Positions 2,915 to 25,273 of a stretch of DNA of 25,273 nt are shown here, piece by piece. A program made the position numbers and the translations under genes. How positions within the stretch are numbered: the first letter of the stretch is position 1; each line of letters starts with the position of its first letter. This DNA is from an uncultured bacterium (GTDB lineage Bacteria; Auribacterota; Auribacteria; Auribacterales; Auribacteraceae). The notes under the pieces are model-generated. The model saw only the letters and a program-made list of their open reading frames with translations, ran no database searches and was not told the origin of the DNA. Where the stretch lies: assembly GCA_964451165.1 (NCBI GenBank), contig CAYVGJ010000006.1, forward strand, positions 1 to 25,273, in the 5' to 3' direction.

Positions 2915-2918
2915 AAGT

Positions 2919-4785: not shown

Positions 4786-6055
4786 TTTTTAATTCCTTAC
4801 TTCTAATGTTAAGTTTTTTGAAATATATGAAATTCGACAATGATATACAAATAGAATGAACTATCAATGTTGCCAGAAAAACACCAACAAAACCATAATA
4901 CTTTATTAAAACCAAATCCAGTATAATATTACTTAATCCTCCCAAAAAAGTCAAAACAGAAAGTATTTTAGCGTATCCTGACGGAGTGATAAATGCATTT
5001 GCCGTAAAACTCCCCCAAATTTTTAAAGGAAGAAGAAAAGATAATATTTTTAATATCTGTATGAATGATTCATCGTTATACTTTGAACCCCATTGGTTTA
5101 AGATTACAATAAAAAAAATGTAAATTAAAATTGCCGTAACAATCGATAACGGCAACCCGTATATTGCCGATAACCTGAACTTTTCGCGCAATTTATTGTA
5201 TTCCTTCATAGAACTCCATCTGGATGCGTCAGGCGCGATTGTCTGCCCTAATATTATTGAGGGCATTAATATGAAATTAAATATATTGTCAATAATTCCA
5301 TAATACCCGATCTCTACCATATAACCGAATTTTTCCATAATAAGGATGTCTATTCTGGTATACATGAAATAAGATACATTCGCGATACCTATGTACATAG
5401 CGTATTTCGCAATTTTTCTCATAACATCGGAATTGAATCCACGTGTAGATATCGGAGCGGAAAAAAGAAGCCCGATTAAATATATAAACTGAATTGCCGC
5501 AACAGATAATACAGCCCCGAATAGTTTATATTTCATTATCAGTATAAAAGATATACCGATAGCGAAACCGCACGCATATATATTTCTGAAAAAAAGGTCT
5601 TTGAATTTTTTCTTACCCCGATAAATTCCATCTAATAACGATATAAAAGGTGTGATATAAAGATTTGGAATAAGAACCAGAATATATTTGTAATAATTAT
5701 GGAATAATTTCGAGCCGAAAATTATTATAAATAGCGAGCTGATAGTTGCCAGTATAATAATTATTACTGAAGCCGACCCGAATACCTTTTTCTCATTATC
5801 GGATTGCAGAGCAGAATATTCAGCGGTATATTTTGAAGCGGACGCTGAGATTCCAAAATCACAAACTATTATAAAAAGCATCATTATCGACGATATATAT
5901 GTTATAATACCGTATTCAACTGAAGTCAAATAAGATAAGGAAATCAGAAGGATACTTATCGATAAAACACTTTTTAATAATGTTTGCGATGATCTCCAAA
6001 AAAAATTTTTAAACAAAATCTTATTTTTATTAAAAAAGTACAATAATTTTTTCAT
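4763..6055 (-). CDS. Polysaccharide biosynthesis protein / oligosaccharide flippase (MOP superfamily, Wzx-like)
   Basis: 430 aa, about 12 predicted TM helices, extremely AT-rich (about 25-32% GC in counted windows), and positioned inside the glycosyltransferase cluster. Confidence 0.65.
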   Translation of the reverse strand: MKKLLYFFNKNKILFKNFFWRSSQTLLKSVLSISILLISLSYLTSVEYGIITYISSIMMLFIIVCDFGISASASKYTAEYSALQSDNEKKVFGSASVIIIILATISSLFIIIFGSKLFHNYYKYILVLIPNLYITPFISLLDGIYRGKKKFKDLFFRNIYACGFAIGISFILIMKYKLFGAVLSVAAIQFIYLIGLLFSAPISTRGFNSDVMRKIAKYAMYIGIANVSYFMYTRIDILIMEKFGYMVEIGYYGIIDNIFNFILMPSIILGQTIAPDASRWSSMKEYNKLREKFRLSAIYGLPLSIVTAILIYIFFIVILNQWGSKYNDESFIQILKILSFLLPLKIWGSFTANAFITPSGYAKILSVLTFLGGLSNIILDLVLIKYYGFVGVFLATLIVHSICISLSNFIYFKKLNIRSKELKNDRKTLL

Positions 6056-6126
6056 TTAAATATTTTATGTTATTAATTATCATTTCAATATTATAAAACT
6101 ATAAAATTCATAAGTAGAGATAATTT

Positions 6127-7062
6127 ATGCCGAAATATAATCCGAAAGTAAGTGTTATAATACCTTCATATAACAGAGCTCACATAATTTTAAACTGTCT
6201 CGAAAGTGTTTGTTCCCAAACATACAGTAATTTAGAAATAATAATTGTCGATGACGGTTCAAAAGACAATACATCCGATGTCGTATCCCAATATAAAGAT
6301 TCAAGGATTATATATGTAAAACACGAAAAAAATCAAGGTCTTCCTTCTGCAAGAAATACGGGAATAAAAACGTCTTGTGGAGAAATATTAGCTTTTCAGG
6401 ATACCGATGATTTATGGATGCCGACCAAAATTGAGGAAACCGTTAATGTTTTTGGTGAATCAAGCTCTGATGTAGGCGTTGTTTACGCCGCATCAATAAG
6501 GTATCGAAACAACAAAAAAACTTATCTGCCGGCTTCTTATATAAAACCAAAAGAAGGAGACGTTTTTAAAAGGCTTTTGCTCGGTAATTTTATACCGGCT
6601 ATATCTGCTTGTGTCAGAAGAGAATGTTTTGATCAAGTAGGCATTTTTGATCCATCTCTTCCGAGTTTGGAAGACTGGGAAATGTGGATTCGACTTGCTA
6701 AAAAATACAAATTCAGATTTATCGAAGAACCTTTACAGACAATATATTATACAAAGGACAGTTTAACGGCTAATGTCAGTAATTTTCTTAATGCAGAAAA
6801 ACTTATTTTAAAGAAACATTATAGCGATTTCGCTAAAAATCCTCCGGTTCTTGCTAAACGTTATGCGCAAATTGGTATTTATAACATGTTGTCAGGAAAT
6901 AATAAACAATGCCGTGAATACTTTTATAAAGCTCATGCAGCATGCCAAAACAAATACATCTATAAAACACTTTATTGGTTGTCTGCTTTTCCTGGATTAG
7001 TTTTTATAAAAGCATGTTTTTTGTTCTATATGAATATAAAAAGAATATTAAACAAGTTGTAG
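6127..7062 (+). CDS. Glycosyltransferase family 2
   Basis: VSVIIPSYNRAHIILNCLESVCSQTYSNLEIIIVDDGSKDNT, followed by a DTDD motif (FQDTDDLW). Divergent from the flippase, with a 71-nt AT-rich spacer. Confidence 0.8.
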   Translation: MPKYNPKVSVIIPSYNRAHIILNCLESVCSQTYSNLEIIIVDDGSKDNTSDVVSQYKDSRIIYVKHEKNQGLPSARNTGIKTSCGEILAFQDTDDLWMPTKIEETVNVFGESSSDVGVVYAASIRYRNNKKTYLPASYIKPKEGDVFKRLLLGNFIPAISACVRRECFDQVGIFDPSLPSLEDWEMWIRLAKKYKFRFIEEPLQTIYYTKDSLTANVSNFLNAEKLILKKHYSDFAKNPPVLAKRYAQIGIYNMLSGNNKQCREYFYKAHAACQNKYIYKTLYWLSAFPGLVFIKACFLFYMNIKRILNKL

Positions 7063-7088
7063 ATAATTTAAAACATAAGGAGAAATAA

Positions 7089-7871
7089 ATGATATGCCCG
7101 CTATGCTCGAGATCCACCGAAAAGTTATTTTATAAAACCGATGATTTAATCTTGTATAAATGTTCATGCGGTTTTGTTTTTCACAACCAACAAACAGAAT
7201 ATAACGATCAATACAGTATTGAATTCGCCAAAACACGGAAATTTATGTATCCGGATAGAGCCGAATGTCTTAGAGATATAGTTCAGCGGATTCGCAAATA
7301 TAAACCCGCGGGAAACCTTCTTGATATAGGATGTGGAGACGGGCATTTTTTAAGTTATGCAAAAGATTATTATGATATTTCCGGAATAGAACCTTCATAT
7401 GATTTATCAGTTCACGCTTCGAAAATACTGAGTATTCCTGTTGTGCATGGTTATTATCCGGCTGACTTAAAAAATACTCAAAAAAGCGATATCATAACAA
7501 TGATCCAGGTTATGGAACATATCCCTAACCCTGTTAAGATATTGGAACATATCTACAATAACTTGAGTCAAGGCGGTTTAGTTGTTATAGAAATACCATC
7601 AATTTCCGCGCCGCATTTTTTATTATATCGCTTAACCGGTATAAAACGATTTGTGAATAATCCATATGGTATAATAAAAAATCATGTCGGATATTATTCA
7701 CCAAAAAGATTTTTATCTCTCATGAACTCCATTGGATTTAAAAAAATTGAATTAACAACCGGACGATGGCAAGTTAAATACAAAGGTACATTGAAATCAA
7801 TCGCAAAAATAATTGATCCGGTTTTCAATATGCTGAGAATAGGTGGAATTCTTTATATCGGAACCAAGTAA
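7089..7871 (+). CDS. Class I SAM-dependent methyltransferase with N-terminal C4 zinc ribbon
   Basis: CPLCSRS...YKCSCGFVF zinc ribbon, then LLDIGCGDGHFLSY (motif I) and VIEIPS (post II). AAGGAG SD 7 nt upstream of the ATG. Confidence 0.7.
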   Translation: MICPLCSRSTEKLFYKTDDLILYKCSCGFVFHNQQTEYNDQYSIEFAKTRKFMYPDRAECLRDIVQRIRKYKPAGNLLDIGCGDGHFLSYAKDYYDISGIEPSYDLSVHASKILSIPVVHGYYPADLKNTQKSDIITMIQVMEHIPNPVKILEHIYNNLSQGGLVVIEIPSISAPHFLLYRLTGIKRFVNNPYGIIKNHVGYYSPKRFLSLMNSIGFKKIELTTGRWQVKYKGTLKSIAKIIDPVFNMLRIGGILYIGTK

Positions 7872-10045: not shown

Positions 10046-11788
10046 TCACAAAATCCGATGTAAATAAGGTATTAATCCAGCTATGATAAAATGCATATCG
10101 ACAATATCCGAAAAGTTTAAATTCAAGGAATATTGCAATAGATCGTTTTTTAAAGATGATATATAAGTACTCCATAAAGGAATCAGCAACATAAGCCAGA
10201 CCGGAGATTTCCAAATAACAGTTGAATTAATAACAATCAAAAAACTTGTGAATATAACAAGAATTTTTAATATCTTCAGAACTTTATCTTTACCCATATA
10301 TATAGGAAGTGTTTCAACTCCAACCATCATGTCTTCCTGAATTTCCCTTATATCATTTCCAATTGATCTTATTGCGGCAAGAGTTGCAACAAAAAATATT
10401 GCTGTTAAATTTGTAGTATAAAAAAAATTAACACCTGAAGAAATAAGAGGAACAAATACCAATACCGTTACCCATCCAAGAACCACAAAAAGATCTTTAG
10501 ATCCGGGAATTCGGCTAATTTTTTTAATAGAAATATTTCTATTTTTAAAATATGGCAAGCCAATACTCTGGTAAAAAAAACCGAAAAAAAGTAAAAGTAT
10601 AGATAAAATAAAGGGAATTATTCCAAGTTTAAAACTTACAATCAAAACAGTTATGATAGATATTGTTATTATTGAAACAATAGATTTTTTACGCCGGTCG
10701 TAAAATTTAATTTTTTCCGGTTCGTTTAGTTTCAAAAACCATTTTTTCTTTAATCCTTTAAAACTATAAACAGCAAGTATATAAAAAAAGGAAAGCACAA
10801 AGTATTCTTTCCTTGAATATAAGTTCTGCATTGAGCAAGCGCTATAACTCAGCCAACCTGCTGCAAAAGCAACAAGGAGATTAGTGTTGCGTATAAAATT
10901 CCATGTTTTACTGAACAATTTTAGTATTACAGGGAGGTTTTCTTGCTGACCGCATTTTATCTTGTATACAATCTGTTTTATCATCCAGTTTGGTGTTGAA
11001 GCTCCTGCGGTAACCCCGATTCTTTGATATTTATTGAAGTCGATCTGTTTTAGATCGGATTCTTCTTCTATATGAATAGCTTTTGTTCCGGTTTCGCCGG
11101 ATATTTTTGCTAAGCGTGTGGTATTAGCGCTGTTTTTGCCTCCAATAATTATCATTAGATCAACCGTTTTTGCTATATTGTAGACCTCATTCTGGCGGGC
11201 TATAGTCGATGGGCAGATCGTATCGAAGACAACACAATTTTCTTTTCCGTATTTTTTGATTATTGCATCACATACATCATTAAAAATTTCTTTCTGTTGT
11301 GTTGTCTGGGCAACAATACAGATTTTTTTTAAATCAGGCAGTTTTTTTACATCATCAATATTATTTATAACAAATCCATTATTTTCAGCGAATCCGAGCA
11401 GTCCTTTTACTTCAGCGTGCCCTTCATCACCAACGATAATTGTAGAGTAACCTTTTAATGCGTGTTTTTTTACAATTCCTTGTACTTTTCCGACATCAGG
11501 GCAGGTCGCGTCGCAAATATTGGCGTTTATGGATTTTAATTGGGTTCTTGTTTTGGGAGGTATACCATGAGCACGGATAACCACATTTTTATTTTTCGCC
11601 AGCATCGGATCGTCAATCGGTTTTATTCCCAAATTACTTAATTGTTCAAGAACCTGCGGATTATGAATTATCGGTCCCAAAGTTACAGTTTCCCGATCTG
11701 ATTTTTTAGCAACCGCAAGAACTTTTTCTACAGCTTTGCGCACGCCTTTGCAGAATCCAGCTGTTTTCGCTACTTTTAACGTACTCAT
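10046..11788 (-). CDS. ispH: 4-hydroxy-3-methylbut-2-enyl diphosphate reductase (IspH/LytB) fused to a C-terminal ~300-aa polytopic membrane domain
   Basis: Residues 1-275 carry all the IspH hallmarks: GFCKGV, HNPQV, RAHG, DATCPDVGKV, GDEGHAEVKG, QTTQ, ICPSTIARQ, GGKNSANTTRLA, GVTAGASTP. Residues ~300-580 have about 9 predicted TM helices and an Asp/Glu-rich motif NDIREIQEDMMVGVETLPIYMG that resembles the first motif of UbiA-type prenyltransferases. The ORF is continuous, so this is not a frameshift artefact within the window. Confidence 0.8.
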   Translation of the reverse strand: MSTLKVAKTAGFCKGVRKAVEKVLAVAKKSDRETVTLGPIIHNPQVLEQLSNLGIKPIDDPMLAKNKNVVIRAHGIPPKTRTQLKSINANICDATCPDVGKVQGIVKKHALKGYSTIIVGDEGHAEVKGLLGFAENNGFVINNIDDVKKLPDLKKICIVAQTTQQKEIFNDVCDAIIKKYGKENCVVFDTICPSTIARQNEVYNIAKTVDLMIIIGGKNSANTTRLAKISGETGTKAIHIEEESDLKQIDFNKYQRIGVTAGASTPNWMIKQIVYKIKCGQQENLPVILKLFSKTWNFIRNTNLLVAFAAGWLSYSACSMQNLYSRKEYFVLSFFYILAVYSFKGLKKKWFLKLNEPEKIKFYDRRKKSIVSIITISIITVLIVSFKLGIIPFILSILLLFFGFFYQSIGLPYFKNRNISIKKISRIPGSKDLFVVLGWVTVLVFVPLISSGVNFFYTTNLTAIFFVATLAAIRSIGNDIREIQEDMMVGVETLPIYMGKDKVLKILKILVIFTSFLIVINSTVIWKSPVWLMLLIPLWSTYISSLKNDLLQYSLNLNFSDIVDMHFIIAGLIPYLHRIL

Positions 11789-14139
11789 TCACCCTCCGGA
11801 TATTTCATTTTTAAAAACTCAATAAAATCTTTCTCTATTCGATTTAATACCTTTTTTATTTCTTGTTCAGGAATTGTAGAAGATATTTCTTTTTTTGATT
11901 TTTCAAAATTCATTCCATTCTTAATTATTGCTTTAATTATCTCTTTCTCGTAATTGATGATTATATTGCTTGTTAATGATTGAGATTCTCTTTTTTCTTC
12001 TTTCCCTGAATTAAGGAGATACTCAAATCCTGTCTGAGATAAATTCAATACAGGATAAAGCCCTTTTTGGCGAATTAAAAAACCTTTTATAGCCAGATTT
12101 GAAATAACGGACTCAATATCTTCACGAGACAAATCCCGATACTGTCCATAATGTTTAGTTTTTTTTAAATTCCATTTACGTATCTGTTGGTTATTAGATC
12201 CTTTCAGGATATCAACGATCACTTTCTGTCCGAATCTATCAGGATAAGATTTTATCGTATAAAGCACAGCCTCAATCAGATTATTTTTATCCACAGTAAT
12301 TTCGGTATTTTTTTCTGCAATTTCACAAGAATCATTTTCTGCTTTTACATCGGGTTTTACGCATGTATCACAACTGTTGCAATTATCACCATTTAAGGTT
12401 TTATCACCAAAATACCGAAGCAGATAAAAGTGCCTACATCCTTTATTGAACACATATCCTTCCATAATTCTAAGGCGCTGGTATTCTTTTCCGGCACGTT
12501 CTTCAAGAAGATCATAGCGAATAGGAAGATTATTGGTATCCAAGTTCTTCTGAATCATACGGATTCCCCTTCCACGGAAAGGCGCCCGGTACTCAATAAT
12601 GTTTTTTTCATTCAATGCGGTTATCGCGCGCATCAGACTATCTTTAGGGATCCTGCATTTAACGGCAAGATCATCGGGATAAAACTGGATTCCGGTATAT
12701 ATCGCGTTTTCGTAGATTTCCATAATGTTTCCCAGAACAAGCCTTTGTATCTCGGCACGGGTATCTATAGAGTCAAGAGCTTCATCGAAATTAAGCAGAA
12801 GTTTAAGTGATGCTTTGTGGTTTTTTTCAGATAACCGTTCGACGATATTATTATCTTCAAGAATTCGAAGAATCGATGATATTGCCATATCGTTTACCTT
12901 GTTAGCGGATAAACATTTCTGTATTTCATCATGTGTCTTAAGGATGATTTCCTCATTTTCTGCATCAAGCACGGAATAGACTTCTTTTATCAATTCTTTG
13001 TCAGGATAACTTCCCTGAATAAAAAATTCCTGAAGATATCTGTCTCCATATCCATAAAGAAGTATGCAAAAAGATCTTTTCCCATCTCTTCCCGCTCTTC
13101 CCGCTTCCTGATAATATGCTTCAAGAGAACCAGGTAAATTAAAATGTATGACTCCCCTTACATTCTTTTTGTTGATACCCATTCCAAAAGCATTTGTACA
13201 AACGATAATCCTAACCGAATCGTTTAAAAAAAGTTCCTGATTGTTTTTCCGATCTTCATCAGTTAAACCCGCATGATAAGAAACAGCTTTTATCTTTTCG
13301 TTAACAAATGCGGTTGTTATTTTATCAACAACTTTTCGTGTTCCAGCATACACAATAAGACTACCTTGTACCTTGCAAACGATTCTTTTCAGCTTTTCGA
13401 GTCGTTTATTTTCGCTGTCGATTCGATCTGTCATAAAAAAAAGGTTTGGCCTGTGAAATCCTGTAATTACTTCGTTGTCGGCGGATAATCCCAGATTAGC
13501 GATAATATCCGATCGGACTTCAGTTGTGGCTGTTGCGGTCAGTGCGATTATAGATCGGATTTTAAGATAATCGGCGACACGTTTTAATCTTAGATAACTC
13601 GGCCTGAAATCATGTCCCCATTCTGAAATGCAATGTGCCTCATCAATAACAAACAATGATATTTTCAGCTCTTTTAACTGTAAAACAAAATTTCTGTTAT
13701 AAAACCGCTCGGGAGCGACATAAACTAACCGGTATTTCCTGTTCGCTATTTCATGCAGACGATTTGAAATCTCAATAGATGTTATAGAGCTGTTAATAAA
13801 AGTACTCGGTATACCCCATGAATTAAGCTGGTCTACCTGATCTTTCATCAGAGCGATCAGCGGAGAAACAACCAGCACAATACCATCCATTATAACAGCA
13901 GGAAGCTGGTAACATAAAGATTTACCTCCGCCTGTAGGCATAATTACAAAGAGATTTTCACCTTTTAGAATACGATTAACTACTTCTTCCTGTCCCGGAA
14001 GAAAATCGTCATAACCAAAATACTTTTTTAGATGTTCTTTAATATTCAAGAAAAGACCCCGATAAACCCATGCAATAGATTTTATAATATTTATCAGTAA
14101 TTTAAAATTAATAGGATTAATATAAAGAAAATTTCTCAA
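11785..14139 (-). CDS. recQ: ATP-dependent DNA helicase RecQ (with internal insertion)
   Basis: FGYDDFLPGQEEVV, IMPTGGGKSLCYQLPA, VIDEAHCISEWGHDFRPSY, EAGRAGRDG, Zn-binding CRHF...CNSCDTC, and an RQC winged helix (FGQKVIVDILKGSNNQQIRKW). The 784 aa compare with about 610 for the E. coli enzyme. There is a 4-nt ATGA overlap with ispH. Confidence 0.85.
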   Translation of the reverse strand: MRNFLYINPINFKLLINIIKSIAWVYRGLFLNIKEHLKKYFGYDDFLPGQEEVVNRILKGENLFVIMPTGGGKSLCYQLPAVIMDGIVLVVSPLIALMKDQVDQLNSWGIPSTFINSSITSIEISNRLHEIANRKYRLVYVAPERFYNRNFVLQLKELKISLFVIDEAHCISEWGHDFRPSYLRLKRVADYLKIRSIIALTATATTEVRSDIIANLGLSADNEVITGFHRPNLFFMTDRIDSENKRLEKLKRIVCKVQGSLIVYAGTRKVVDKITTAFVNEKIKAVSYHAGLTDEDRKNNQELFLNDSVRIIVCTNAFGMGINKKNVRGVIHFNLPGSLEAYYQEAGRAGRDGKRSFCILLYGYGDRYLQEFFIQGSYPDKELIKEVYSVLDAENEEIILKTHDEIQKCLSANKVNDMAISSILRILEDNNIVERLSEKNHKASLKLLLNFDEALDSIDTRAEIQRLVLGNIMEIYENAIYTGIQFYPDDLAVKCRIPKDSLMRAITALNEKNIIEYRAPFRGRGIRMIQKNLDTNNLPIRYDLLEERAGKEYQRLRIMEGYVFNKGCRHFYLLRYFGDKTLNGDNCNSCDTCVKPDVKAENDSCEIAEKNTEITVDKNNLIEAVLYTIKSYPDRFGQKVIVDILKGSNNQQIRKWNLKKTKHYGQYRDLSREDIESVISNLAIKGFLIRQKGLYPVLNLSQTGFEYLLNSGKEEKRESQSLTSNIIINYEKEIIKAIIKNGMNFEKSKKEISSTIPEQEIKKVLNRIEKDFIEFLKMKYPEGE

Positions 14140-14181: not shown

Positions 14182-14967
14182 TTATAACATTGCTTCGACT
14201 TTTTCTGTTTTGTCAGGTGTATTGTTAATTGGATAATTATCAAGTATATACTCGAGAACTAAATAAAGCGAATCAATGTACCTTGAGTGCATTAAGGTAT
14301 GTTCTGTTTTATCATCGCCGGACGCGACAAGAACAAGGCATGATTTATAATTTTTGATATCTTTTGTATTGTACATTATATAAACGAAATCAGGGATACC
14401 GTTTATATTTGAATCTATAAAAACATAATTTCCCCTGATTACCATCAGTCCTCTTTCATTATAAAGCCTGTATATATAAGTTTCAAAAAATTGATCGAAA
14501 TGACGAATGCCTTCTTTCATTTGAAAAACATGGTTTATTTTATATTTGGATGAATCGGGATTAAAACTGTACGGATCCTGTAAATTGTATTGAACAACAT
14601 ATTTCTTTTCTGGTTGATTAAATTTTATGTAGGTAAGAAAAGGTTTGCCCCATCCTTTTATCTGGAAATCGTTTCGCAAATATTTATCTACTAAAGGAAA
14701 CAAATTCACAATAAATAAGTTTTCCACCAGGCGGGCGATAAGAGTATTCTTATCACCTTGAGAATGTATCATTGATTTATCTATCGTATTGTATTCGCTT
14801 TCAATTTGATTTTTTTGGTTTAGGTTATTTGATAAATCTATCAATGAAGGTAAGCGAATCATAACTTCATTCTCTTTATTCGGACCGTATAAACCTCCTT
14901 TGGCATTTATCACATAAAACAAAAAAATAATAATTATTATTAATTTGATTATTTTGGATTGTATCAT
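14182..14967 (-). CDS. Hypothetical secreted protein
   Basis: N-terminal signal peptide MIQSKIIKLIIIIIFLFYVINAKG; I recognise no catalytic motif. Confidence 0.5.
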   Translation of the reverse strand: MIQSKIIKLIIIIIFLFYVINAKGGLYGPNKENEVMIRLPSLIDLSNNLNQKNQIESEYNTIDKSMIHSQGDKNTLIARLVENLFIVNLFPLVDKYLRNDFQIKGWGKPFLTYIKFNQPEKKYVVQYNLQDPYSFNPDSSKYKINHVFQMKEGIRHFDQFFETYIYRLYNERGLMVIRGNYVFIDSNINGIPDFVYIMYNTKDIKNYKSCLVLVASGDDKTEHTLMHSRYIDSLYLVLEYILDNYPINNTPDKTEKVEAML

Positions 14968-15072: not shown

Positions 15073-15828
15073 TTATATAGAGGTTGGTATATCGATAAAT
15101 TCCGCGGATATGTTGAATTTTTGTATTAAGTTTTTCATCAGTGATTTTAACCCAAATACCTCTGTGTAATAATGGCCGGCAAAAACAATATTGATAGCTG
15201 ATTCTTTAGCTATATGATATGCGGACAGTTTAGGCTCACCTGTGAGAAATAGATCGGCGCCATATTGAGCGGTAATTTCTATAGCTTCAGAACCGCTACC
15301 TGATATAATTCCGACTTTTGAGATATTGTTGTTCCCGAAAGAGAGTACTTGTGGATCTGGATTGATTTTTTGTCTAATAAGGTCTAAAAATGAAGATAAA
15401 CTTGCATCATATTCAAGTTCGCCGATTACGAGCAGGTCTGTATAGTTCCCGATTGTAATCTGGCGTATATTTTTCAATCCCAAGATATTCGCTATTTGGA
15501 CATTGTTGCCGAATATAGGGTGAATATCAAGCGGGAGATGCGCCGCGTAAAGAGATATATTATTATTAACAAGTATCTTGATTCGTTTATATAAACTGCC
15601 GTTTATTTTTTTAATGTTTCCGAAAAATAAACCATGATGGACTATAACCATATCGGCATTTTTGTCTAATGCGTATCTAAATCCTTCTTCACTTGCGTCA
15701 ACCATAAAAACAATCTTTTCGATGTTTTCTTTCCCATCAACTTCAAGCCCGTTTGCGCAAGCATCGCTGATCTGGTTTATTCTTAATTCATCATCAAGAT
15801 ATGATTGGATTACGCTTAGTTTTTCCAT
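15073..15828 (-). CDS. Nif3-like dinuclear metal centre protein (GTP cyclohydrolase 1 type 2 family)
   Basis: An N-terminal pattern LSVIQSYLDDEL...ISDACANGLEV, an HHGLFF motif (compare HHPLIF), and a C-terminal GHYYTE. 251 aa. Confidence 0.75.
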   Translation of the reverse strand: MEKLSVIQSYLDDELRINQISDACANGLEVDGKENIEKIVFMVDASEEGFRYALDKNADMVIVHHGLFFGNIKKINGSLYKRIKILVNNNISLYAAHLPLDIHPIFGNNVQIANILGLKNIRQITIGNYTDLLVIGELEYDASLSSFLDLIRQKINPDPQVLSFGNNNISKVGIISGSGSEAIEITAQYGADLFLTGEPKLSAYHIAKESAINIVFAGHYYTEVFGLKSLMKNLIQKFNISAEFIDIPTSI

Positions 15829-15832
15829 ATAT

Positions 15833-16408
15833 TTACTTTTTATAATCGATGAAATTTTTCAAAATTCGTTTACCGGATTTTGTCAAAATAGATTCCGGAT
15901 GAAACTGTACACCCCATACATCGAACTGTTTATGTTTTATAGCCATAATCTGTTTATCGTCAAGTGATTCAGCGATAATTTGCAGGCAATCTGGAAATCT
16001 ATCCCGTAAAATTACCAGCGAATGATACCTTGTTGCCTCGAATGGGTTATCAATTCCATCAAACAAAAGATTTTCATGATACTTGATCATGGATGTTTTC
16101 CCGTGCATAAGAATAGGCGCTCTATCTACAATCCCGCCAAATGCTTCCCCGATACTCTGATGCCCAAGGCATACACCCAGAATCGGTATTTTTCCTGAAA
16201 CTTCTTTTATAACCCTGACTGAGATGCCTGCTTCTTTCGGTGTACACGGACCGGGCGATATTATTATTTTATCAGGGTTTAGTTCTATTATCTGCTCAAC
16301 GGTGATTTTATCATTTCTAAATACAATAGGATCGGCTCCGAGTTCCCCTACATATTGTACAAGGTTATAAGTAAAAGAGTCATAATTATCAATTACGAGA
16401 AGTTTCAT
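15833..16408 (-). CDS. trpG: Anthranilate synthase component II / aminodeoxychorismate synthase glutamine amidotransferase (class I GATase)
   Basis: MKLLVIDNYDSFTYNLVQYVGELG; catalytic GVCLGHQSI; C-terminal HSL...FHPES. 191 aa. There is a 4-nt overlap with trpE. Confidence 0.85.
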   Translation of the reverse strand: MKLLVIDNYDSFTYNLVQYVGELGADPIVFRNDKITVEQIIELNPDKIIISPGPCTPKEAGISVRVIKEVSGKIPILGVCLGHQSIGEAFGGIVDRAPILMHGKTSMIKYHENLLFDGIDNPFEATRYHSLVILRDRFPDCLQIIAESLDDKQIMAIKHKQFDVWGVQFHPESILTKSGKRILKNFIDYKK

Positions 16409-17907
16409 ATTTCCTCTTTCTCAATTTTTTCAGCTAACGCAACGGCTTTAAAAAGTCCTTTGCCTTTATTAATTGTCTCATAATATTCGGATTCCGGATT
16501 TGAATCCGCAACTATTCCTGCACCAGCCTGAATATACACTTTGTCATCCTTTAAGACAATTGTACGAATAGTTATTGCAGTATCAAGGTTTCCGTTGAAA
16601 CTGAAATACCCTACAGCACCGGCGTATGGCCCGCGCTTGAGTTTCTCAAGTTCTTCTATTATTTGCATTGCCCGTATCTTAGGCGCACCGCTGACTGTCC
16701 CTGCGGGAAACGATGCTTTTACAACATCAAATATATCGGCGCCGTCTTTCAATTTACCTTTTACATCAGATACGATATGCATTACATGCGAATAATATTC
16801 TATTATCATACATTCGTTATTATCTACGGCAACCGTATTAAATTCACAGACTCTGCCAAGATCATTGCGCCCGAGATCCAAAAGCATAACATGTTCCGCA
16901 ATTTCCTTAGGGTCTGCCAGTAAATCCTTAGCCAATTCAGCATCCTCACTACAATCTTTGCCTCGTTGCCTTGTACCCGCAATAGGACGGATTTCTGCGA
17001 CCTTATTAATACATCTAACCATAATTTCAGGTGATGAACCTATAACCTGAAAACCGTCAAGATTTAGATAATACATATATGGAGATGGATTAATCGATCG
17101 TAATGCCCGGTATATATTTAGCGGCGAAGCGGTAGTGGAAGATGAAAATCTCTGAGAAAGAACAACTTGAAAAATATCGCCGGCTTTAATGTATTCTTTA
17201 GCTTTTATAACCGATTGTTCAAATTCATCTTTGGTTATATTTGATTCCATACTCTTTTGTTCTGATGATTCTATAAATTCACATGGCGCGAATGAGATTT
17301 TTTGCGATAGTTTCAGAATTATATTGTCTATATCCGATATTGCTTTTTTATAAGCCTGTTCAGCCTCATTGATATCGTTTACATGAGCATTTGACATAAC
17401 AATAATCTTGTTTTTTACATGATCAAATATTACAAGAGTATCCGTTATCATGAAATAGGATTCATCTATACACAGATCGTCGAAATTCTTTTGCGGAATA
17501 TTCTCGAAAAATCGGACCATTCCATAACCCAAATATCCGATAGCGCCACCGCAAAATATTGGCAATTCAGGGATTATTACAGGATTGTATTGATTCATAA
17601 TCTTTTTTAGTTCAATAAATGGATCACCGGTAATATTTATAGAATAAGACAATCCGTTTTCATCAACTATTACCTCATTGGATTTAACCCTGACTACACA
17701 TCTCGGTTTATTACCTATAAAAGAATACCTTCCGATTCGCTCGTTTTTCTCAACACTTTCCATAAGAAAAGTATTTTTTTGATCGGCATCAAGTTTTCTC
17801 AAAATCGACAACGGGGTTTCCATATCGCCGAGAATTTCTTTATAGACGGGAACGAGATTCCCTTTATTAAGCAAATCTTTAAATTGATCAAAATCAGGTT
17901 TATACAT
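16405..17907 (-). CDS. trpE: Anthranilate synthase component I (TrpE; PabB not excluded)
   Basis: Chorismate-binding enzyme motifs (GAGIVADSNPESEYYETINK, PKIRAMQIIEELE) and an N-terminal FLMES-x10-S that matches the TrpE LLES-x10-S feedback motif. 500 aa. Confidence 0.7.
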   Translation of the reverse strand: MYKPDFDQFKDLLNKGNLVPVYKEILGDMETPLSILRKLDADQKNTFLMESVEKNERIGRYSFIGNKPRCVVRVKSNEVIVDENGLSYSINITGDPFIELKKIMNQYNPVIIPELPIFCGGAIGYLGYGMVRFFENIPQKNFDDLCIDESYFMITDTLVIFDHVKNKIIVMSNAHVNDINEAEQAYKKAISDIDNIILKLSQKISFAPCEFIESSEQKSMESNITKDEFEQSVIKAKEYIKAGDIFQVVLSQRFSSSTTASPLNIYRALRSINPSPYMYYLNLDGFQVIGSSPEIMVRCINKVAEIRPIAGTRQRGKDCSEDAELAKDLLADPKEIAEHVMLLDLGRNDLGRVCEFNTVAVDNNECMIIEYYSHVMHIVSDVKGKLKDGADIFDVVKASFPAGTVSGAPKIRAMQIIEELEKLKRGPYAGAVGYFSFNGNLDTAITIRTIVLKDDKVYIQAGAGIVADSNPESEYYETINKGKGLFKAVALAEKIEKEEI

Positions 17908-17930: not shown

Positions 17931-18572
17931 TTATTTTTGAGACTTGGCATTTTGGAGTTTTTCAAATAACTCTTTTTGAGGGCTATTGAGAGACTCAAGT
18001 TTGTTCAAGATTTTTTCGGCATCATCAAATTTCTTTAATCCTATGTTTGAATATGCAAGCTGTTGCATGGAACCTATATGATCCGGTTTGAGAGATAGTG
18101 ATTTATCCAGATATTTCACTGCTTCTTCATAATTAGCCATTTTATTATATATATGTCCGAGATTATAATAAATCAGATAAACATCCGCATAATTAGAATC
18201 AATTTCAAGAGCTTTATTGAATTCGGTTATAGCTTCCTGATTCCTGCCTAAATCTTTGTATGTATGGGCAAGATTCAAATGAAGAACAAATAATGCCGGA
18301 TTTATTTCTATAGCTTTGAGAAGCTGATTCAATGATTCTTCTTTCATATCGAGATTATCATAAATTATACTCATATTGAATCTGATGCGCGTTTCCATAT
18401 CTTTATCGGGATTTTGTGAAAGTGCGGATTGATATTCTTTTAATGCATCTTGATACATCCCTTTCTGAGTATATACATATGCCCTGTTATAATTATCCTC
18501 AGTGATTTGTGCAAATAATGAAACCGGTAAAATAAGAAACATAAAAAACCAGAAAAATATTTGTTTGAACAT
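17931..18572 (-). CDS. Secreted TPR-repeat protein
   Basis: Signal peptide MFKQIFFWFFMFLILPVSLFAQ followed by several 34-aa TPR-like repeats (AL.EY..AL...P, A..N.G..Y). Confidence 0.65.
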   Translation of the reverse strand: MFKQIFFWFFMFLILPVSLFAQITEDNYNRAYVYTQKGMYQDALKEYQSALSQNPDKDMETRIRFNMSIIYDNLDMKEESLNQLLKAIEINPALFVLHLNLAHTYKDLGRNQEAITEFNKALEIDSNYADVYLIYYNLGHIYNKMANYEEAVKYLDKSLSLKPDHIGSMQQLAYSNIGLKKFDDAEKILNKLESLNSPQKELFEKLQNAKSQK

Positions 18573-18635: not shown

Positions 18636-20438
18636 TTAGAACCTATATAATTTATCTAATTCTTTTTTTACTCCGGGCTGATTCGGATTTATTCTTAATG
18701 AAATTTTATAACATTGCGCGGCTTTATCTAATTTGTTTAAAAATTTATAGCATGCCGCCATATTGTTTAGAGCTAAATAATATTGAGAATTGATATTTAA
18801 CGCTTTCTGAAAAAAAATCAGAGCATTGTTCTGATTTCCGATTTTTGAATAAATTATACCAATGAAATTAAGCGATTCAAAATCGTTTTTATCCAAACTT
18901 AAACATTTTTGAAAAAACTCAAGCGATAGATCAAATTTATTGGTATCAAAATATAGCCTTGCGAGATTGTATATGACATACTCATTATGCGGATCGAGAA
19001 GATATGCTCGCTGAAGTAATTCAAGCCCTTTTTTTACATCTTTTTTTTCAGATAAATACCATGACGCCAACTTATTATAGTCATCACTCAGTTGTGGCTT
19101 TTCCATATTCCAACTTACCGCAACATATATTATTGATACAATAAATAAATATGTAACCAACCGTTTCCAGTTGCGCAATGAATTTAAAACAATGAATATA
19201 CCATGCGAAGAGAATAAAATAAGAGCGGGTACCACAGGAAGCCTATATCTTGAATTTACAAAATAAAGTATAACGGATATAAACTGGCAAAATATAAAAT
19301 ACCGCAAAACTGATTTGCCCGAATTCTCTTTCAAACTGAATAATATTCCAAAAATTGCCCACGGTACGATGAGAAAAAAAGAAATCATCGGGATTCTAAT
19401 TAATGATGAAAACCTCTCGTAAAACTCAATATTCACAAAATCAGGGATTTCTCCGCCCTGCCAGAATAAATATGTTTTTTTAAATTGCAATAAAATATAC
19501 TTAAAAGGATTATGGAAAATATAATTGTATGCTTTGTTTTTCCAGAATTTTGATGATTCGGATTGCTTAAGTTTTTTGCCTGATTCTTTTTCAGCTAACC
19601 GGTGTGAATTTTCTATCATTTGTTCACCCTGGCGCCCAATACCTTTTATGGAATGCATTTTCCCTGAAGCGTCTTTATTGTTTCCAATATAAAAATTTAT
19701 ACCGCTGTGTGCGGTTAAAATGACAAAATCTTTTCCTACCAGATAGTTCCTCAATCCACTTATTCCAAGAATAATTCCGCAACCTATAAAACACAAAATA
19801 AATCCGATCAAAAATTCCTTTTTCAGATTTTTTCGGAATTTGAAAAGAAATCCCAAAAAAACTATAAATGGATATAGCAGAATGGATGGCCTGCATAAAG
19901 ATGAAATACCTGTAAGAATCCCAAATATAAAACCTGAAGGTAAAGAAAAAGTTTTTATGAATTTTAACGATACGAGCAGTACAATAAGATATAGAAAAAT
20001 TTCAAGGCAAGTACCTATCAATTCGCAGTCATAAAAAATAAATGGTTTATAAAATACTGCCAGTAATGATGATAAAATAGCGATTTTACGGTTGAAAATA
20101 TTTTTTCCGAGAAAATATAACATCACACAACTAACCGATCCCATAATAATCTGGATAAACTTTGCGATATAAACGTTAATTCCAAAAATTTTATATATCA
20201 ACGCAAGAAAATATGCGTAAAGCGGCAACCCCTTAAATACAGAATTCCCTAACCAGTCGCCGGAAGATATTTTTATTGCCCAGTTATGATAGAATAATGG
20301 ATCTAATGAATGCGGAATAAAAAATGGACAACCTTTTATCTGCTCAAGAAAAACTAATCTGATAGAAAAAGCGAAAATAAAAACCAGAAAAGCTGATATG
20401 AAATCAGCATGTTTTAATAAAGTATGCAATCTTTTCAA
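18636..20438 (-). CDS. GT-C fold glycosyltransferase (PMT_2/ArnT/GT39-like) with C-terminal TPR repeats (TMTC-like architecture)
   Basis: About 400 aa with 10 or more TM helices, including an early periplasmic loop and typical spacing for polyprenyl-phosphate-sugar-dependent transferases. The C-terminal ~150 aa hold TPR repeats (YNLARLYFDTNKFDLSLEFFQKCLSLD...). AAGGAG SD 6 nt upstream. Confidence 0.6.
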   Translation of the reverse strand: MKRLHTLLKHADFISAFLVFIFAFSIRLVFLEQIKGCPFFIPHSLDPLFYHNWAIKISSGDWLGNSVFKGLPLYAYFLALIYKIFGINVYIAKFIQIIMGSVSCVMLYFLGKNIFNRKIAILSSLLAVFYKPFIFYDCELIGTCLEIFLYLIVLLVSLKFIKTFSLPSGFIFGILTGISSLCRPSILLYPFIVFLGFLFKFRKNLKKEFLIGFILCFIGCGIILGISGLRNYLVGKDFVILTAHSGINFYIGNNKDASGKMHSIKGIGRQGEQMIENSHRLAEKESGKKLKQSESSKFWKNKAYNYIFHNPFKYILLQFKKTYLFWQGGEIPDFVNIEFYERFSSLIRIPMISFFLIVPWAIFGILFSLKENSGKSVLRYFIFCQFISVILYFVNSRYRLPVVPALILFSSHGIFIVLNSLRNWKRLVTYLFIVSIIYVAVSWNMEKPQLSDDYNKLASWYLSEKKDVKKGLELLQRAYLLDPHNEYVIYNLARLYFDTNKFDLSLEFFQKCLSLDKNDFESLNFIGIIYSKIGNQNNALIFFQKALNINSQYYLALNNMAACYKFLNKLDKAAQCYKISLRINPNQPGVKKELDKLYRF

Positions 20439-20442
20439 AATA

Positions 20443-21429
20443 TTAATTATCGTTTTTATTATTTTGAGTATTTAATTCTATTCTTCTTACCCGTACCTGA
20501 ATATCTTCAGATAGTTTTCTAACCGTAGCTACTACATCGGCTAAAAGTGCGAACATAATTAGCTGGAATCCCAAAGTTAAAAATACGGAAGCAAGGATTA
20601 ATGATTGTATATGGCCTCCGCCACTACCCGTTAAATAAAAATATATAAATCTTAGTCCCAATAATGTTCCGATAAAAAATATTGACGAGCCTATATATAA
20701 AAAATATTTCAGAGGCCTGTATAAAACGCTTACACGAATCAATGTGGTTATTGATCTTGAAATATAAGCGGGAATACTTTTAAATAATCTTGATTCACGT
20801 GTTTTTACGTTAACCCTGATGGGCACATATATTAATTTCAATTTTTTTTCTCCGGCCTGAATCAGTGTTTCAAGGGTATATGTATATTCCGAAAAAACAT
20901 TGATTTGCAAAGCGGCTTCTTTTGAAAACGCTCGAAATCCTGATGTAGCATCCGGCACTTCCGTTCTCGAGAAGATTCTTACAACAAAACTTCCAAATTT
21001 TTGCAGTTTTTTCTTTATCCATGAGAAATCTTTTATGGAATCGATCGGGCGTACACCTACTACCATATCGGCATATCCTTTGGCAATAGGTTCAACAAGT
21101 CTGGCAATATCACCTCCGCAATATTGGTTATCCGCGTCAGTATTGACAATGATATCGGCTCCGTATTTAAGGCAAGCGTCAAGACCGGCACGAAATCCGT
21201 TTGCCAATCCCTTATTTCTTCTGAAACGTATTATATGATTGACTCCGAGTTTTTTTGCTACTTCCGAAGTTCTATCTGTGCTTCCGTCATCAATGATAAG
21301 CGTTTCTATTTCGGTAATGTTATCTATTTTTTTAGGTAAATCAGCGATAACTGCCGGCAAAGTTTTTTCTTCATTATAACAAGGTATTTGTATTATTAAT
21401 TTCATTTCTTGCACCCCGATCAAAATCAA
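20443..21429 (-). CDS. GT2 polyprenyl-phosphate sugar synthase (Dpm1/ArnC/GtrB-like) with C-terminal TM helices
   Basis: KLIIQIPCYNEEKTLPAVIADLP...LIIDDGSTDRTSEVA...VNTDADNQY (DxD), plus two C-terminal TM helices typical of GtrB/ArnC. There is a 4-nt overlap with rlmI. Confidence 0.7.
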   Translation of the reverse strand: MILIGVQEMKLIIQIPCYNEEKTLPAVIADLPKKIDNITEIETLIIDDGSTDRTSEVAKKLGVNHIIRFRRNKGLANGFRAGLDACLKYGADIIVNTDADNQYCGGDIARLVEPIAKGYADMVVGVRPIDSIKDFSWIKKKLQKFGSFVVRIFSRTEVPDATSGFRAFSKEAALQINVFSEYTYTLETLIQAGEKKLKLIYVPIRVNVKTRESRLFKSIPAYISRSITTLIRVSVLYRPLKYFLYIGSSIFFIGTLLGLRFIYFYLTGSGGGHIQSLILASVFLTLGFQLIMFALLADVVATVRKLSEDIQVRVRRIELNTQNNKNDN

Positions 21430-22598
21430 TTAACTATCAGAATCAACCCTTTAAAATATTCAGTTTCCGGATGATATATGTTAACAGGATGATCCGGTTC
21501 CTGACAAATAGTTTTCACAATCCTTATATTTTTTCCTGTGTCTTTAGCGGACGCGAAAATTATTTTTTTAAACAAATCCATAGATATATGATGCGAACAA
21601 CATAATGTTATTATCATTGCTCCGTCTTCAGTTAATTTCATCGCGTTCATGTTTATATCTTTGTATGCTCGAGCGGATTTATCGATATGCGATTTTTTCT
21701 GGCATAACGGAGGCGGATCAACAATAATCATATCATATTTGTTTGTCACTTTTCTTATATACTCAAATGCGTTCTCACAAACCGACTCATGTTTAGACGT
21801 AAGGGCACGGTATTTTAATTCATTTTCAAGAAACCCCAAAAAAGTTTTTGATGATTCTACCGATTTTACAAACGAGGCTCCGGATTCCAGAGCGCATAAA
21901 CTCAGGCTCCCTGTGTAACTGAATAAATTCAAAACAGATAAATCTTCCGCATAATTTTTTACAAAAGACCGTACTCCCCTCAAATCAAGATAAAAACCTG
22001 TTTTTTGCCCGGATTTGATTAAAACAGGATATTTTATGCCGTCCTCAGTAATATAAAATAAATCAGGAGGAATCTCGCCATATATACAACCGGATTTGAC
22101 TTCAATCCCCTCTTCTGATTTTAAAGATGTTTCTGAACGATCATAGATTCCTTTTGGATTGTATTTATCAACGAGAATTTCAGTAATTAATTCTTTTCTT
22201 GAATATAATCCCGCGCTTGTAAATTGAACAACAATATATTCGCCGAATTTATCCGCGGAAAACCCCGACAAAAAATCGCCCGAATCATTAAATAATCTTA
22301 TCGCGTCTGAGGATATATTAAGTTTTTGCCTGAATTTAACGGCATTTTCAATTTTACCGGCAAAAAAGTTTTTATTTATATCTTCTTTTTTGAAAGTTGC
22401 TATTCTAACTTTGATATTTGAAAAATCGTTGTAAAAACCTCTTGCGAGAAATTCGCCTTTCGATGAAATGAGATCAACTATATCTCCCGTTTTTGGATCG
22501 CCACCTATTTTTTCTATAGAACCGCTGAATACCCATGGATGGCGGGCAAGAATTGATTTTTCTCTACCGGATTTTATTGTTATTTGTCCACTGAACAT
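21426..22598 (-). CDS. rlmI: 23S rRNA (cytosine1962-C5)-methyltransferase RlmI
   Basis: The N-terminus [26 protein letters not shown] closely parallels E. coli RlmI ([21 protein letters not shown]). A PUA-like region is followed by the MTase motif IV [8 protein letters not shown]. Confidence 0.85.
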   Translation of the reverse strand: [390 protein letters not shown]

Positions 22599-24344: not shown

Positions 24345-24887
24345 ATGAAAACAGTTTCTCTATCAAATGCATACAGAATTATAAATCATAATCCGTTGTT
24401 GCTTGTAACTTCATCTGATGGAATAAAAACAAGTGTTCTTCCTGTTGCATGGTATATGCCTGTATCGAAAGATCCTTTTGAAATAGCTATGTGTCTGAGT
24501 CTATCTCATTTTACAACGAAATTAATTTTAGAATATAGAGAAGCTGTTCTCAATATTGCGTATCATACACAGATAGACTTAATAATGAAATGTGGAAAAT
24601 CTCATGGAAACCAGATAAATAAAATAATTGAATTTGATATTCCGGTAGCGCCGGTCGATAATTTTAAGTCACCTTATATAACCTCTTGCGCCGGATACCT
24701 TGCGGCTAAATTACTCGATCCCGATCTCGCGCAAAAGGAAGAGATATTCAAATTCAAGATCATAGAAACAAAAGTTGAAGAAACCATATTCACTGATCGT
24801 TGGTTGATCGGAGAAAACACAAAAGCAAAATTCCTGCATCATCTTGGCGGCGGGTATTTCGTATCCGATGGTAATTTATTGGTTTAA
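24345..24887 (+). CDS. Flavin reductase-like (FMN-binding split-barrel) domain protein
   Basis: NPLLLVTSSDGIKTSVLPVAWYMPVS (compare the flavin reductase pattern NP..LVT...G..N..P..W); 180 aa; start-stop coupled to the upstream MBL gene. Confidence 0.5.
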   Translation: MKTVSLSNAYRIINHNPLLLVTSSDGIKTSVLPVAWYMPVSKDPFEIAMCLSLSHFTTKLILEYREAVLNIAYHTQIDLIMKCGKSHGNQINKIIEFDIPVAPVDNFKSPYITSCAGYLAAKLLDPDLAQKEEIFKFKIIETKVEETIFTDRWLIGENTKAKFLHHLGGGYFVSDGNLLV

Positions 24888-25243
24888 AAGTAACAGGGTT
24901 TATTTGTCCAGGCGAGCAATACATCAACCTGAATCGCTTTAGCGACTCCAAACAGAGTAAATCCCCATAAAGCTATCCATAAAACGGTGCACAAATATTT
25001 GTTTTGTAATAAACAAATATTTTTATGCATGTGCAAAATGCCATACGCGGAAAGCAATAAGAACCAGGGAACTGCGGGAAGAATATATCTCGACTGAAAA
25101 TTTCCCCAGAATATAAAAAATACAAGAATCAAAAAAGAGTAAATAACAGGCATTAATTTATGTTCCCTGTCTTTCCAGCTAATAAGAAATGGTGAAATGT
25201 ATCCTATGATATAAACAGGAAAATACTCAAACAGTTTTTTCAT
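24884..25243 (-). CDS. Hypothetical small integral membrane protein
   Basis: 119 aa with three to four hydrophobic segments. Its stop overlaps the stop of the convergent flavin reductase-like gene by 4 nt. Confidence 0.4.
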   Translation of the reverse strand: MKKLFEYFPVYIIGYISPFLISWKDREHKLMPVIYSFLILVFFIFWGNFQSRYILPAVPWFLLLSAYGILHMHKNICLLQNKYLCTVLWIALWGFTLFGVAKAIQVDVLLAWTNKPCYF

Positions 25244-25273
25244 ATAAAAGTACCATGGTTCACTTTTGAAAAA

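Follow-up and report, generated by a model that had tools for sequence, protein, structure and literature searches.

Glycosyltransferases of the GT-C fold that carry a tetratricopeptide repeat (TPR) domain have been characterised only in animals (the TMTC proteins) and in one Pseudomonas pilin system (TfpW), and for glycosylation outside the cytoplasm from a lipid carrier a good understanding has been reached in a handful of model bacteria. TMTCs have 11 transmembrane (TM) helices and a luminal TPR domain (PMC7801869), and TfpW, a GT-C whose 11 TM helices are accompanied by a periplasmic TPR domain, glycosylates pilin, has been modelled on ArnT and uses a polyprenyl-phosphate sugar (bioRxiv 10.1101/2020.04.19.049825). 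GtrB together with the GT-C enzyme PgtC2 glucosylates streptococcal proteins (PMC12041528), and both GtrB/PgtC2 and the Pgf systems modify proteins (PMC12041528, PMC11127046). Here we analysed a 25,273-nt stretch of DNA (the window; contig CAYVGJ010000006.1) from an uncultured bacterium of the Auribacterota, the closest named relative of which is Candidatus Auribacter fodinae. The metagenomic contig that contains the window is 295 kb long; its locus is labelled L001, and the other loci are numbered in the same way. In the window the gene of a family 2 glycosyltransferase (GT2) lies 4 nt from the gene of a 600-aa membrane protein in which a GT-C domain is joined to TPR repeats. With a probability that we put at about 0.65, these two proteins form the core of a lipid-carrier-dependent glycosylation route outside the cytoplasm, the acceptor being most likely a protein. 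The pair and a linked TPR protein are encoded on the minus strand, and all three open reading frames (ORFs) were found where a preliminary description of the window had placed them:

20443..21405, minus strand: polyprenyl-phosphate glycosyltransferase (PPGT; GT2 of the GtrB/ArnC/DPMS class), 320 aa, from Pfam, PDB phmmer, Foldseek and hydropathy
18636-20438, minus strand: 600-aa GT-C/TPR membrane protein, from Pfam PMT_2 and TPR
19104..20438, minus strand: GT-C catalytic membrane domain, aa 1-445 of the 600-aa protein
18639..19088, minus strand: C-terminal TPR domain, aa 451-600 of the 600-aa protein (stop codon at 18636-18638)
17931..18572, minus strand: 213-aa all-TPR protein with an N-terminal Sec-type signal sequence

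TMTC1-4 (CAZy GT105, with Dpm1 as donor synthase) share with the 600-aa protein an N-terminal 11-TM GT-C region and a C-terminal non-cytoplasmic TPR domain (predicted here), together with the expected type of donor, a polyprenyl-phosphate monosaccharide from a Dpm1-class GT2, and a GT-C core most like ArnT and PMT. The preliminary description had given the protein the architecture of eukaryotic TMTCs and of bacterial PMT_2 enzymes, and the PMT_2 part of this held (20/20 members tested of the GT-C/TPR family match it), as did the TMTC-like layout. However, the TMTC signature DUF1736, which lies in the loop that joins TM7 to TM8, had no match in the focal protein (E<=0.01) or in the GT-C domains of the family (0/20, E<=1). 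TMTCs also have longer TPR arrays than the about five hairpins found here, and the present protein is bacterial and predicted to be periplasmic; the likeness is therefore one of architecture and shared fold only, and we do not class the 600-aa protein as a TMTC. TfpW, the D-arabinofuranosyltransferase of Pseudomonas aeruginosa pilin, is alike in its GT-C plus TPR architecture (compared by description), but tfpW adjoins pilA and its donor comes from a UbiA-type phosphoribosyltransferase pathway, whereas the GT-C/TPR gene described here has rlmI, the GT2, the TPR protein and trpE as neighbours, and no pilin-like ORF is adjacent to it. In addition, loop 1 of TfpW bears a DDx motif, in contrast to the single invariant Asp of the 600-aa protein.

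ArnC/ArnT are alike in their working logic, but ArnT has 13 TM helices, no TPR domain and lipid A as acceptor. The locus is not an Arn system, since arnA, arnB and arnD-like genes are absent from the window and from the L001 flank and the GT2 reaches only 51 bits against an ArnC cutoff of 529. The three-component systems (GtrA/GtrB/Gtr-type, CsbB/GtcA/YfhO, GtrB/PgtC2 and PgfS/PgfM) follow the same logic of a cytoplasmic GT2 making the donor and a GT-C acting outside. They differ from the locus in that no flippase lies nearby here, the GT-C is of the PMT_2 plus TPR and not of the YfhO/Gtr type, and two GT-Cs accompany one GT2. Actinobacterial O-mannosylation by Ppm1/Pmt (GT39) likewise combines a Dpm1-like synthase with a PMT-superfamily GT-C that acts on secreted proteins; unlike the 600-aa protein, GT39 enzymes are without TPR domains. 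The GT2/GT-C locus is an ordinary kind of system that would not surprise a specialist, and its description refines annotation and overturns nothing.

The predicted lipid-sugar synthase, the GT-C/TPR protein and the secreted TPR protein

The mechanical ORF of the GT2 (20443-21429), which is the extent first reported, opens with TTG. The homologues all start MKLIIQIPCYNE, and on the source contig the gene was called with 320 aa, which puts the true start at the ATG of 21403-21405. This lies 24 nt inward of the end given before; the ORF itself stands. The protein matches Pfam Glycos_transf_2 (PF00535, 3e-27), and a phmmer search of PDB gave Pyrococcus DPMS as its best solved relative (5mlz, 1.5e-14), followed by ArnC (9hwj, 1.7e-11, aligned over aa 2-305) and also GtrB (5ekp); with all three classes it aligns at full length. 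The GT-A domain contains DDGS (D39-D40) and DADxQ (D90, D92, Q94; nt 21124-21138), and the stretch NTDADNQY aligns with VMDADLQH of DPMS and LDADLQN of ArnC, so that the metal-binding DxD motif of the PPGT class is present as DAD. D40, D90 and D92 are invariant, D90 and D92 having been checked in 32 orthologues and short relatives.

Hydropathy placed two C-terminal hydrophobic helices at aa 235-256 and 265-296. Structure prediction, which was run on database homologues of the GT2, gave an AlphaFold2 (AF2) model with a pLDDT of 83 and helices at 211-229, 231-259 and 265-319. The top 25 PDB hits of this model in Foldseek were all GtrB, ArnC or DPMS (291-322 columns; 310-319 columns for GtrB and ArnC), and the juxtamembrane helices and C-terminal two-helix membrane hairpin of the class can both be recognised. 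The GtrB/ArnC/Dpm1 architecture described earlier, a GT-A domain plus two C-terminal TM helices, was thus borne out. From sequence and model, the GT2 is by family a polyprenyl-phosphate glycosyltransferase, and it would be expected to have the activity of one. It passed none of the NCBIfam equivalogs (AglJ 114.7 vs cutoff 325, PpgS 69.8 vs 370, PgfS 54.7 vs 500, ArnC 51.1 vs 529), and so falls under no equivalog that would point to a particular sugar. All of the best 120 database hits of its orthologue group share at least 58% identity with it along the full length, and KSB1, Ignavibacteriales, Actinobacteria, Spirochaetes and Auribacterota are represented among them; conservation thus stays at about 60% across phyla despite varied gene context.

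The 600-aa protein matches Pfam PMT_2 at aa 72-216 (41.4 bits, gathering cutoff 26.1) and TPR_1, TPR_2 and TPR_8 at aa ~455-590, and its TPR domain also matches TPR structures in PDB. For the GT-C domain, neither the single sequence nor a 20-sequence family profile found a sequence match among PDB chains, and only structure comparison tied it to solved GT-Cs. The AF2 model (pLDDT 93.7, pTM 0.91) has the GT-C membrane fold and matches active GT-C enzymes over 330-375 residues. Its best matches were glycosyltransferases and not some other membrane family, a result of the latter kind being the one that, by the preliminary description, would have refuted the module, and the combination of a multi-TM GT-C domain with C-terminal TPRs proposed there agrees with both Pfam and the predicted fold.

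The model helices and the clusters of K/R, which fall in alternate, predicted cytoplasmic loops, indicate a topology of 11 TM helices with a cytoplasmic N-terminus. Loop 1 (aa 35-88), the large loop (aa 236-353), the R397/R399 turn and the TPR domain (aa 451-600) are predicted to lie on the periplasmic side, the last because it is preceded by an odd number of TM helices. In the TPR domain, DSSP assigned helices over aa 451-599, ten in number and forming about five TPR hairpins. By its modelled fold, the protein is a GT-C, presumably an active enzyme, with a C-terminal TPR domain that is predicted to be periplasmic.

In an alignment of 48 GT-C/TPR homologues of 25-66% identity, the residues D46, P72, Y74, G173, G246, G252, G259, K321, E330, G364, R397 and R399 were invariant. 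Asp46 (nt 20301-20303), present in 48/48 sequences, lies in loop 35-71 just before the first juxtamembrane helix, and it provides the conserved acidic residue that had been looked for in the first extracytoplasmic loop. From this position we infer that Asp46 corresponds to the catalytic Asp found in ArnT, PglB or PMT. The family signature G-x-N-F-Y-I-G-N-N occupies aa 246-254 of the large periplasmic loop, which also holds K321 and E330, while R397 and R399 are coded at nt 19242-19250; judged by conservation, K321, R397 and R399 are candidates for holding the phosphate.

The 213-aa protein matches Pfam TPR families (up to 2.5e-30) and is all TPR behind a hydrophobic N-terminus (aa 1-25). Signal cleavage is likely between A and Q in ...SLFA-Q, and the motif ...SL(F/Y)A-Q is kept in the orthologues; this conserved signal-peptidase-type motif indicates that the protein is periplasmic, in line with the secreted TPR protein first reported. 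It also has a conserved non-TPR C-terminal tail, LNKLExLGxPQKDFFxKLQxA. Orthologues of 35-38% identity occupy the same position in L002, L003, L004 and L011, and the protein is a linked downstream neighbour of the GT-C/TPR gene in the Auribacterota-like lineage. With regard to a possible gene fission, BLASTP against the extra C-terminal TPRs of 770-800-aa Zixibacteria homologues gave generic TPR similarity of 25-30% at several positions.

Gene order, linkage across genomes and the GT-C/TPR family

The pair lies in a tight run of minus-strand genes that spans 22598 to 15073, from rlmI to NIF3, with successive gaps of 20, 4, 63, 23, -4 and 4 nt. The other genes of the run are:

21426-22598, minus strand: RlmI-like 23S rRNA methyltransferase (rlmI)
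16405-17907, minus strand: trpE
15833-16408, minus strand: trpG
15073-15828, minus strand: NIF3/DUF34 protein

A terminator scan found no intergenic terminator-like sites on the minus strand of the run, and a consensus promoter scan gave matches no commoner than in shuffled sequence. The operon structure is read from gene spacing; co-transcription of the whole run is plausible, and the 4-nt spacing of the GT2 and GT-C genes suggests translational coupling. The lineage keeps the order rlmI - GT2 - GT-C/TPR - TPR - trpE - trpG - NIF3 - (261 aa) - recQ, and the GT2/GT-C adjacency was found in six related loci with a GT-C identity of 44-47%. Since the order of the whole region is conserved, this reflects general synteny of the lineage and not a specific functional link.

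Locus L011 (metagenome-assembled genome (MAG) HK-STAS-UBP3-1) is different, in that the block of band-7, metallo-beta-lactamase, flavin reductase and rlmI is absent and the order is der - plsY - GT4 - 137 aa - PMT-type GT-C - GT2 - GT-C/TPR - TPR - trpE (GT4, family 4 glycosyltransferase). The GT2 is here flanked by two GT-C genes and the pair is intact without rlmI, which is therefore dispensable for the arrangement. The co-transcription with rlmI and trpEG, which had been called unusual, comes down to synteny within one lineage, and rlmI, trpE, trpG and NIF3 look like syntenic bystanders in a compact conserved gene order. In L011 the trpE ORF (10417-11947) has only 375 aa, most of the N-terminal domain being absent, and is preceded by a gap of ~400 nt, which may reflect gene decay, a frameshift or a fault in the assembly.

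Outside the lineage, we compared 76 loci from other phyla, taken with one genome per species from a family whose signature was matched at least 579 times. A Dpm1/AglJ-like GT2 adjoins the GT-C/TPR gene in only three of them, namely two Desulfobacterales MAGs, in which a 236-aa GT2 overlaps the GT-C start, and one Planctomycetia MAG, in which the GT2 lies just upstream. The order in Desulfobacterales L049 is GT2 - GT-C/TPR - second PMT-type GT-C, the same trio as in L011 but reordered. By our own estimate, adjacency to a GT2 would arise by chance at ~0.1% per locus, and such repeated, independent occurrence speaks for a true functional pairing. In the other 73 loci no GT2 is adjacent, so the donor synthase is usually encoded elsewhere. 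The pairing of the two genes as a module, as first proposed, is therefore supported by the 4-nt gap and by its recurrence in Desulfobacterales and Planctomycetia, but does not extend to most of the loci compared in other phyla.

The GT2 orthologues of other phyla were also found beside enzymes of this kind: the orthologue in Ignavibacteriales (L093) directly adjoins a PMT_2 GT-C, and the one in KSB1 (L090) has a PMT_2 GT-C in the same glycan cluster. In L092 and L093 a flippase-like PF03706/TIGR00374 gene is a neighbour. The Ignavibacteriales cluster (L093 1574-10165) contains an aminotransferase, an ArnA-like formyltransferase, a 720-aa PMT_2 GT-C, a methyltransferase, a PF03706 flippase-like protein and Ugd, and looks Arn-like. 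The spirochaete orthologue (L092 5001-7004) has the PF03706 gene as its sole neighbour, and the clusters in KSB1 (L090 3027-10987) and Actinobacteria have the order YdjM-GT2-GT2-GT2-GT4. A 568-aa protein beside the spirochaete orthologue was considered as a member of the GT-C/TPR family and rejected (hhalign probability 1%).

The profile search for the GT-C/TPR family returned 11,939 clusters (50% identity) at E<=1e-30 and 39,130 at E<=1e-10, from Zixibacteria, Omnitrophota, Ignavibacteria, Planctomycetia, Desulfobacterota, WOR-3, Eisenbacteria, Aminicenantes, Elusimicrobia and others. Pfam PMT (PF02366) was matched by just 2/20 of the members tested and not by the focal protein. Public names of members are "tetratricopeptide repeat protein", "GT39 family protein" and "ArnT-like glycosyltransferase", and NCBI labels some homologues of the 600-aa protein "glycosyltransferase family 39". 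The Auribacterota genome paper makes no mention of glycosylation.

Totals of the GT-C/TPR proteins range from ~560 to >900 aa in several phyla, and the variation lies mostly in the number of TPR repeats. Tandem duplicates occur in L016, L048 and L077, and two copies in one MAG in five cases (L014/L021, L027/L035, L017/L040, L031/L050 and L083/L088). In Zixibacteria, WOR-3 and Ignavibacteria-type MAGs, the neighbours of the GT-C/TPR gene are often large secreted proteins with FG-GAP, FlgD_ig, Por_Secre_tail or CHU_C domains (L006, L008, L009, L040, L057, L067, L069 and L076, one with a PorV-like gene). These resemble type IX secretion cargo, and at about 8 of 80 loci the association may be due to chance. 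Five Planctomycetia MAGs (L015, L022, L029, L039, L044) share a ~210-aa protein directly upstream of the GT-C/TPR gene, with GAPDH downstream; Eisenbacteria L036 has only the upstream ~210-aa protein in common with them, and in L022 this protein sits between the Dpm1-like GT2 and the GT-C. The ~210-aa protein of the Planctomycetia gave no Pfam or NCBIfam match.

The second GT-C and the wider neighbourhood

A second GT-C gene, ~4.5 kb upstream of the pair, is truncated by the end of the window, and GT4 and Zn-ribbon genes precede it on the source contig. The positions of these features, with those of the Zn-ribbon-like protein in related loci, are:

24884..25273, minus strand: second GT-C, PMT/PMT_2 type, without TPR, C-terminal ~129 codons
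L001 3657-4040: Zn-ribbon-like protein
L002 980-1342: Zn-ribbon-like protein
L004 538-951: Zn-ribbon-like protein
L011 5021-5434: Zn-ribbon-like protein

The full gene of the second GT-C (L001 4101-5555) encodes 484 aa with matches to Pfam PMT_2 (2e-16) and PMT (4e-9), and is kept in L002, L004, L010, L011 and L012 at 49-51% identity. Its motif SRYILPAVP is similar to SRYRLPVVP of the 600-aa protein. A soluble protein of 120-137 aa with a weak Zn-ribbon always lies between the GT4 and the second GT-C. The 127-aa protein upstream of the second GT-C was considered as a GtrA-like flippase and rejected, being soluble, Zn-ribbon-like and without TM helices.

A separate glycan-synthesis cluster occupies 1952-7871 of the window, with genes on both strands:

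1952-2914: GT2
2919-3695: methyltransferase
3670-4785: radical SAM/SPASM protein
4763-6055: Wzx-like Polysacc_synt transporter
6127-7062: GT2
7089-7871: methyltransferase

Both of these GT2s lack the C-terminal membrane hairpin that marks a lipid-sugar synthase. The product of the cluster could be the glycan that the GT-C enzymes decorate. At 10046-11788 on the minus strand, and also on L001, a 580-aa fusion joins IspH/LytB (aa 4-281, over the TIGR00216 cutoff) to a UbiA-family prenyltransferase domain; UbiA-type enzymes include polyprenyl-phosphate phosphoribosyltransferases. The gene at 14182-14967 (minus strand) encodes a protein of 261 aa that matches no family and has a hydrophobic, signal-like segment at its N-terminus, and a gene of 259-266 aa without Pfam match lies between NIF3 and recQ in all the related loci examined.

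The proposed route, its rivals and its meaning

In the route that we propose, the GT2, sitting at the cytoplasmic face of the inner membrane, would take one sugar from a nucleotide sugar and load it onto undecaprenyl phosphate. A flippase, presumably coded elsewhere, would turn the lipid-linked sugar to the periplasmic face. The GT-C would then bind the lipid-phospho-sugar at the periplasmic membrane surface and transfer the sugar to the acceptor, with Asp46 acting as catalytic base or acceptor-activating residue and K321, R397 and R399 as candidates for phosphate binding. By analogy with TMTC and TfpW, the periplasmic TPR domain would pick or hold the acceptor, most likely a protein, and the secreted 213-aa protein may be a partner, an adaptor or itself a substrate. 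The second, TPR-less GT-C upstream probably draws on the same lipid-linked sugar as well. The module had been described as self-contained, and this we could not support, because nothing here accounts for the flippase step and the module reaches beyond the interval first assigned to it, a second GT-C with its GT4 and Zn-ribbon genes lying in the same neighbourhood.

A protein acceptor is favoured by analogy, because of the precedents of TMTC, TfpW and GtrB with a GT-C, and because paralogues with different TPR lengths occur, some of them in tandem. Several observations weigh against the proposed route or leave it less specific than we have drawn it. No GtrA/GtcA-, PF03706- or MATE-type flippase was found among the ORFs of the window or in the 5 kb beyond its end. 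The GT2 stays far under every NCBIfam equivalog cutoff, and the equivalence of Asp46 rests on its loop-1 position and not on a residue-level superposition. The 73 of 76 loci without an adjacent GT2 count here as well, and within the lineage the adjacency could partly reflect synteny. TPR domains serve also as scaffolds, and ArnT, a lipid A transferase, is itself a member of the PMT_2 family. A GT2 orthologue of 60% identity, from an Ignavibacteriales MAG, lies within the Arn-like sugar-modification cluster of L093, and no paper characterising any GT-C/TPR family member was found in the literature.

A rival reading keeps the same machinery but has it decorate an envelope lipid or glycan (peptidoglycan, lipid A or core, an O-antigen-like polymer or some other glycoconjugate), in the manner of the ArnT, Gtr or YfhO systems, the TPR domain serving only to dock the enzyme to envelope machinery. 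The PMT_2 membership and the Arn-like context of the GT2 orthologue are consistent with such an acceptor, as are the GT4 and the second GT-C in the focal neighbourhood, a lipid A acyltransferase gene beside the GT-C/TPR gene in L024 and L025, and the fact that glycan-modifying three-component systems are common (PMC11127046). We consider this a serious but less likely alternative, in view of the protein substrates of the characterised TPR-bearing GT-Cs (TMTC, TfpW), the lack of arnA, arnB and arnD-like genes in the window and the L001 flank, and the several MAGs with at least two paralogues that differ mostly in TPR length, which fits a diversified recognition of proteins better.

It is also conceivable that the GT2 and the GT-C/TPR gene are neighbours by synteny only, the GT2 serving other enzymes, such as the upstream PMT-type GT-C, and the GT-C/TPR protein using another donor. 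Adjacency alone is indeed weak evidence where an entire 20-kb region, including rlmI, trpEG, NIF3 and recQ, is syntenic, and the scarcity of adjacent GT2s in other phyla and the varied contexts of an orthologue group that keeps ~60% identity across phyla point the same way. Against this stand the 4-nt spacing with its suggested translational coupling, the intact pair in L011 where the upstream block differs, and the Dpm1/AglJ-like GT2 upstream of the GT-C/TPR gene in three unrelated MAGs, two of them with overlap, so that we think mere synteny quite improbable. That the 600-aa protein might be a catalytically dead GT-C-fold scaffold or a transporter would agree with the lack of a sequence-level match to any solved GT-C, even by profile, and with a literature search that found no characterised family member. 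However, Asp46, K321, E330, R397 and R399 remain invariant at 25-66% identity, which is the pattern expected of an active site, and the fold matches active GT-C enzymes over 330-375 residues; a dead or transporting protein is highly improbable.

Taken further, the lipid-carrier route to a protein acceptor would make the PMT_2 plus TPR family a widespread bacterial counterpart of the TMTCs, devoted to general periplasmic protein O-glycosylation, with the TPR domain reading folded substrates. In Auribacterota-like bacteria it would have become a fixed set of one synthase, two GT-Cs in sequence and a secreted TPR adaptor that docks by its C-terminal tail; we offer this joint reading as speculative and doubtful in its entirety. 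The locus, from a phylum without cultivated members, is a compact and conserved case of linkage between a donor synthase, two GT-Cs and a secreted TPR protein. If the acceptors of the GT-C/TPR family are proteins, the family would represent an overlooked and widespread route of bacterial protein glycosylation with a simple gene set to reconstitute, and the locus is a tidy entry point to a large, widespread and unstudied enzyme family.

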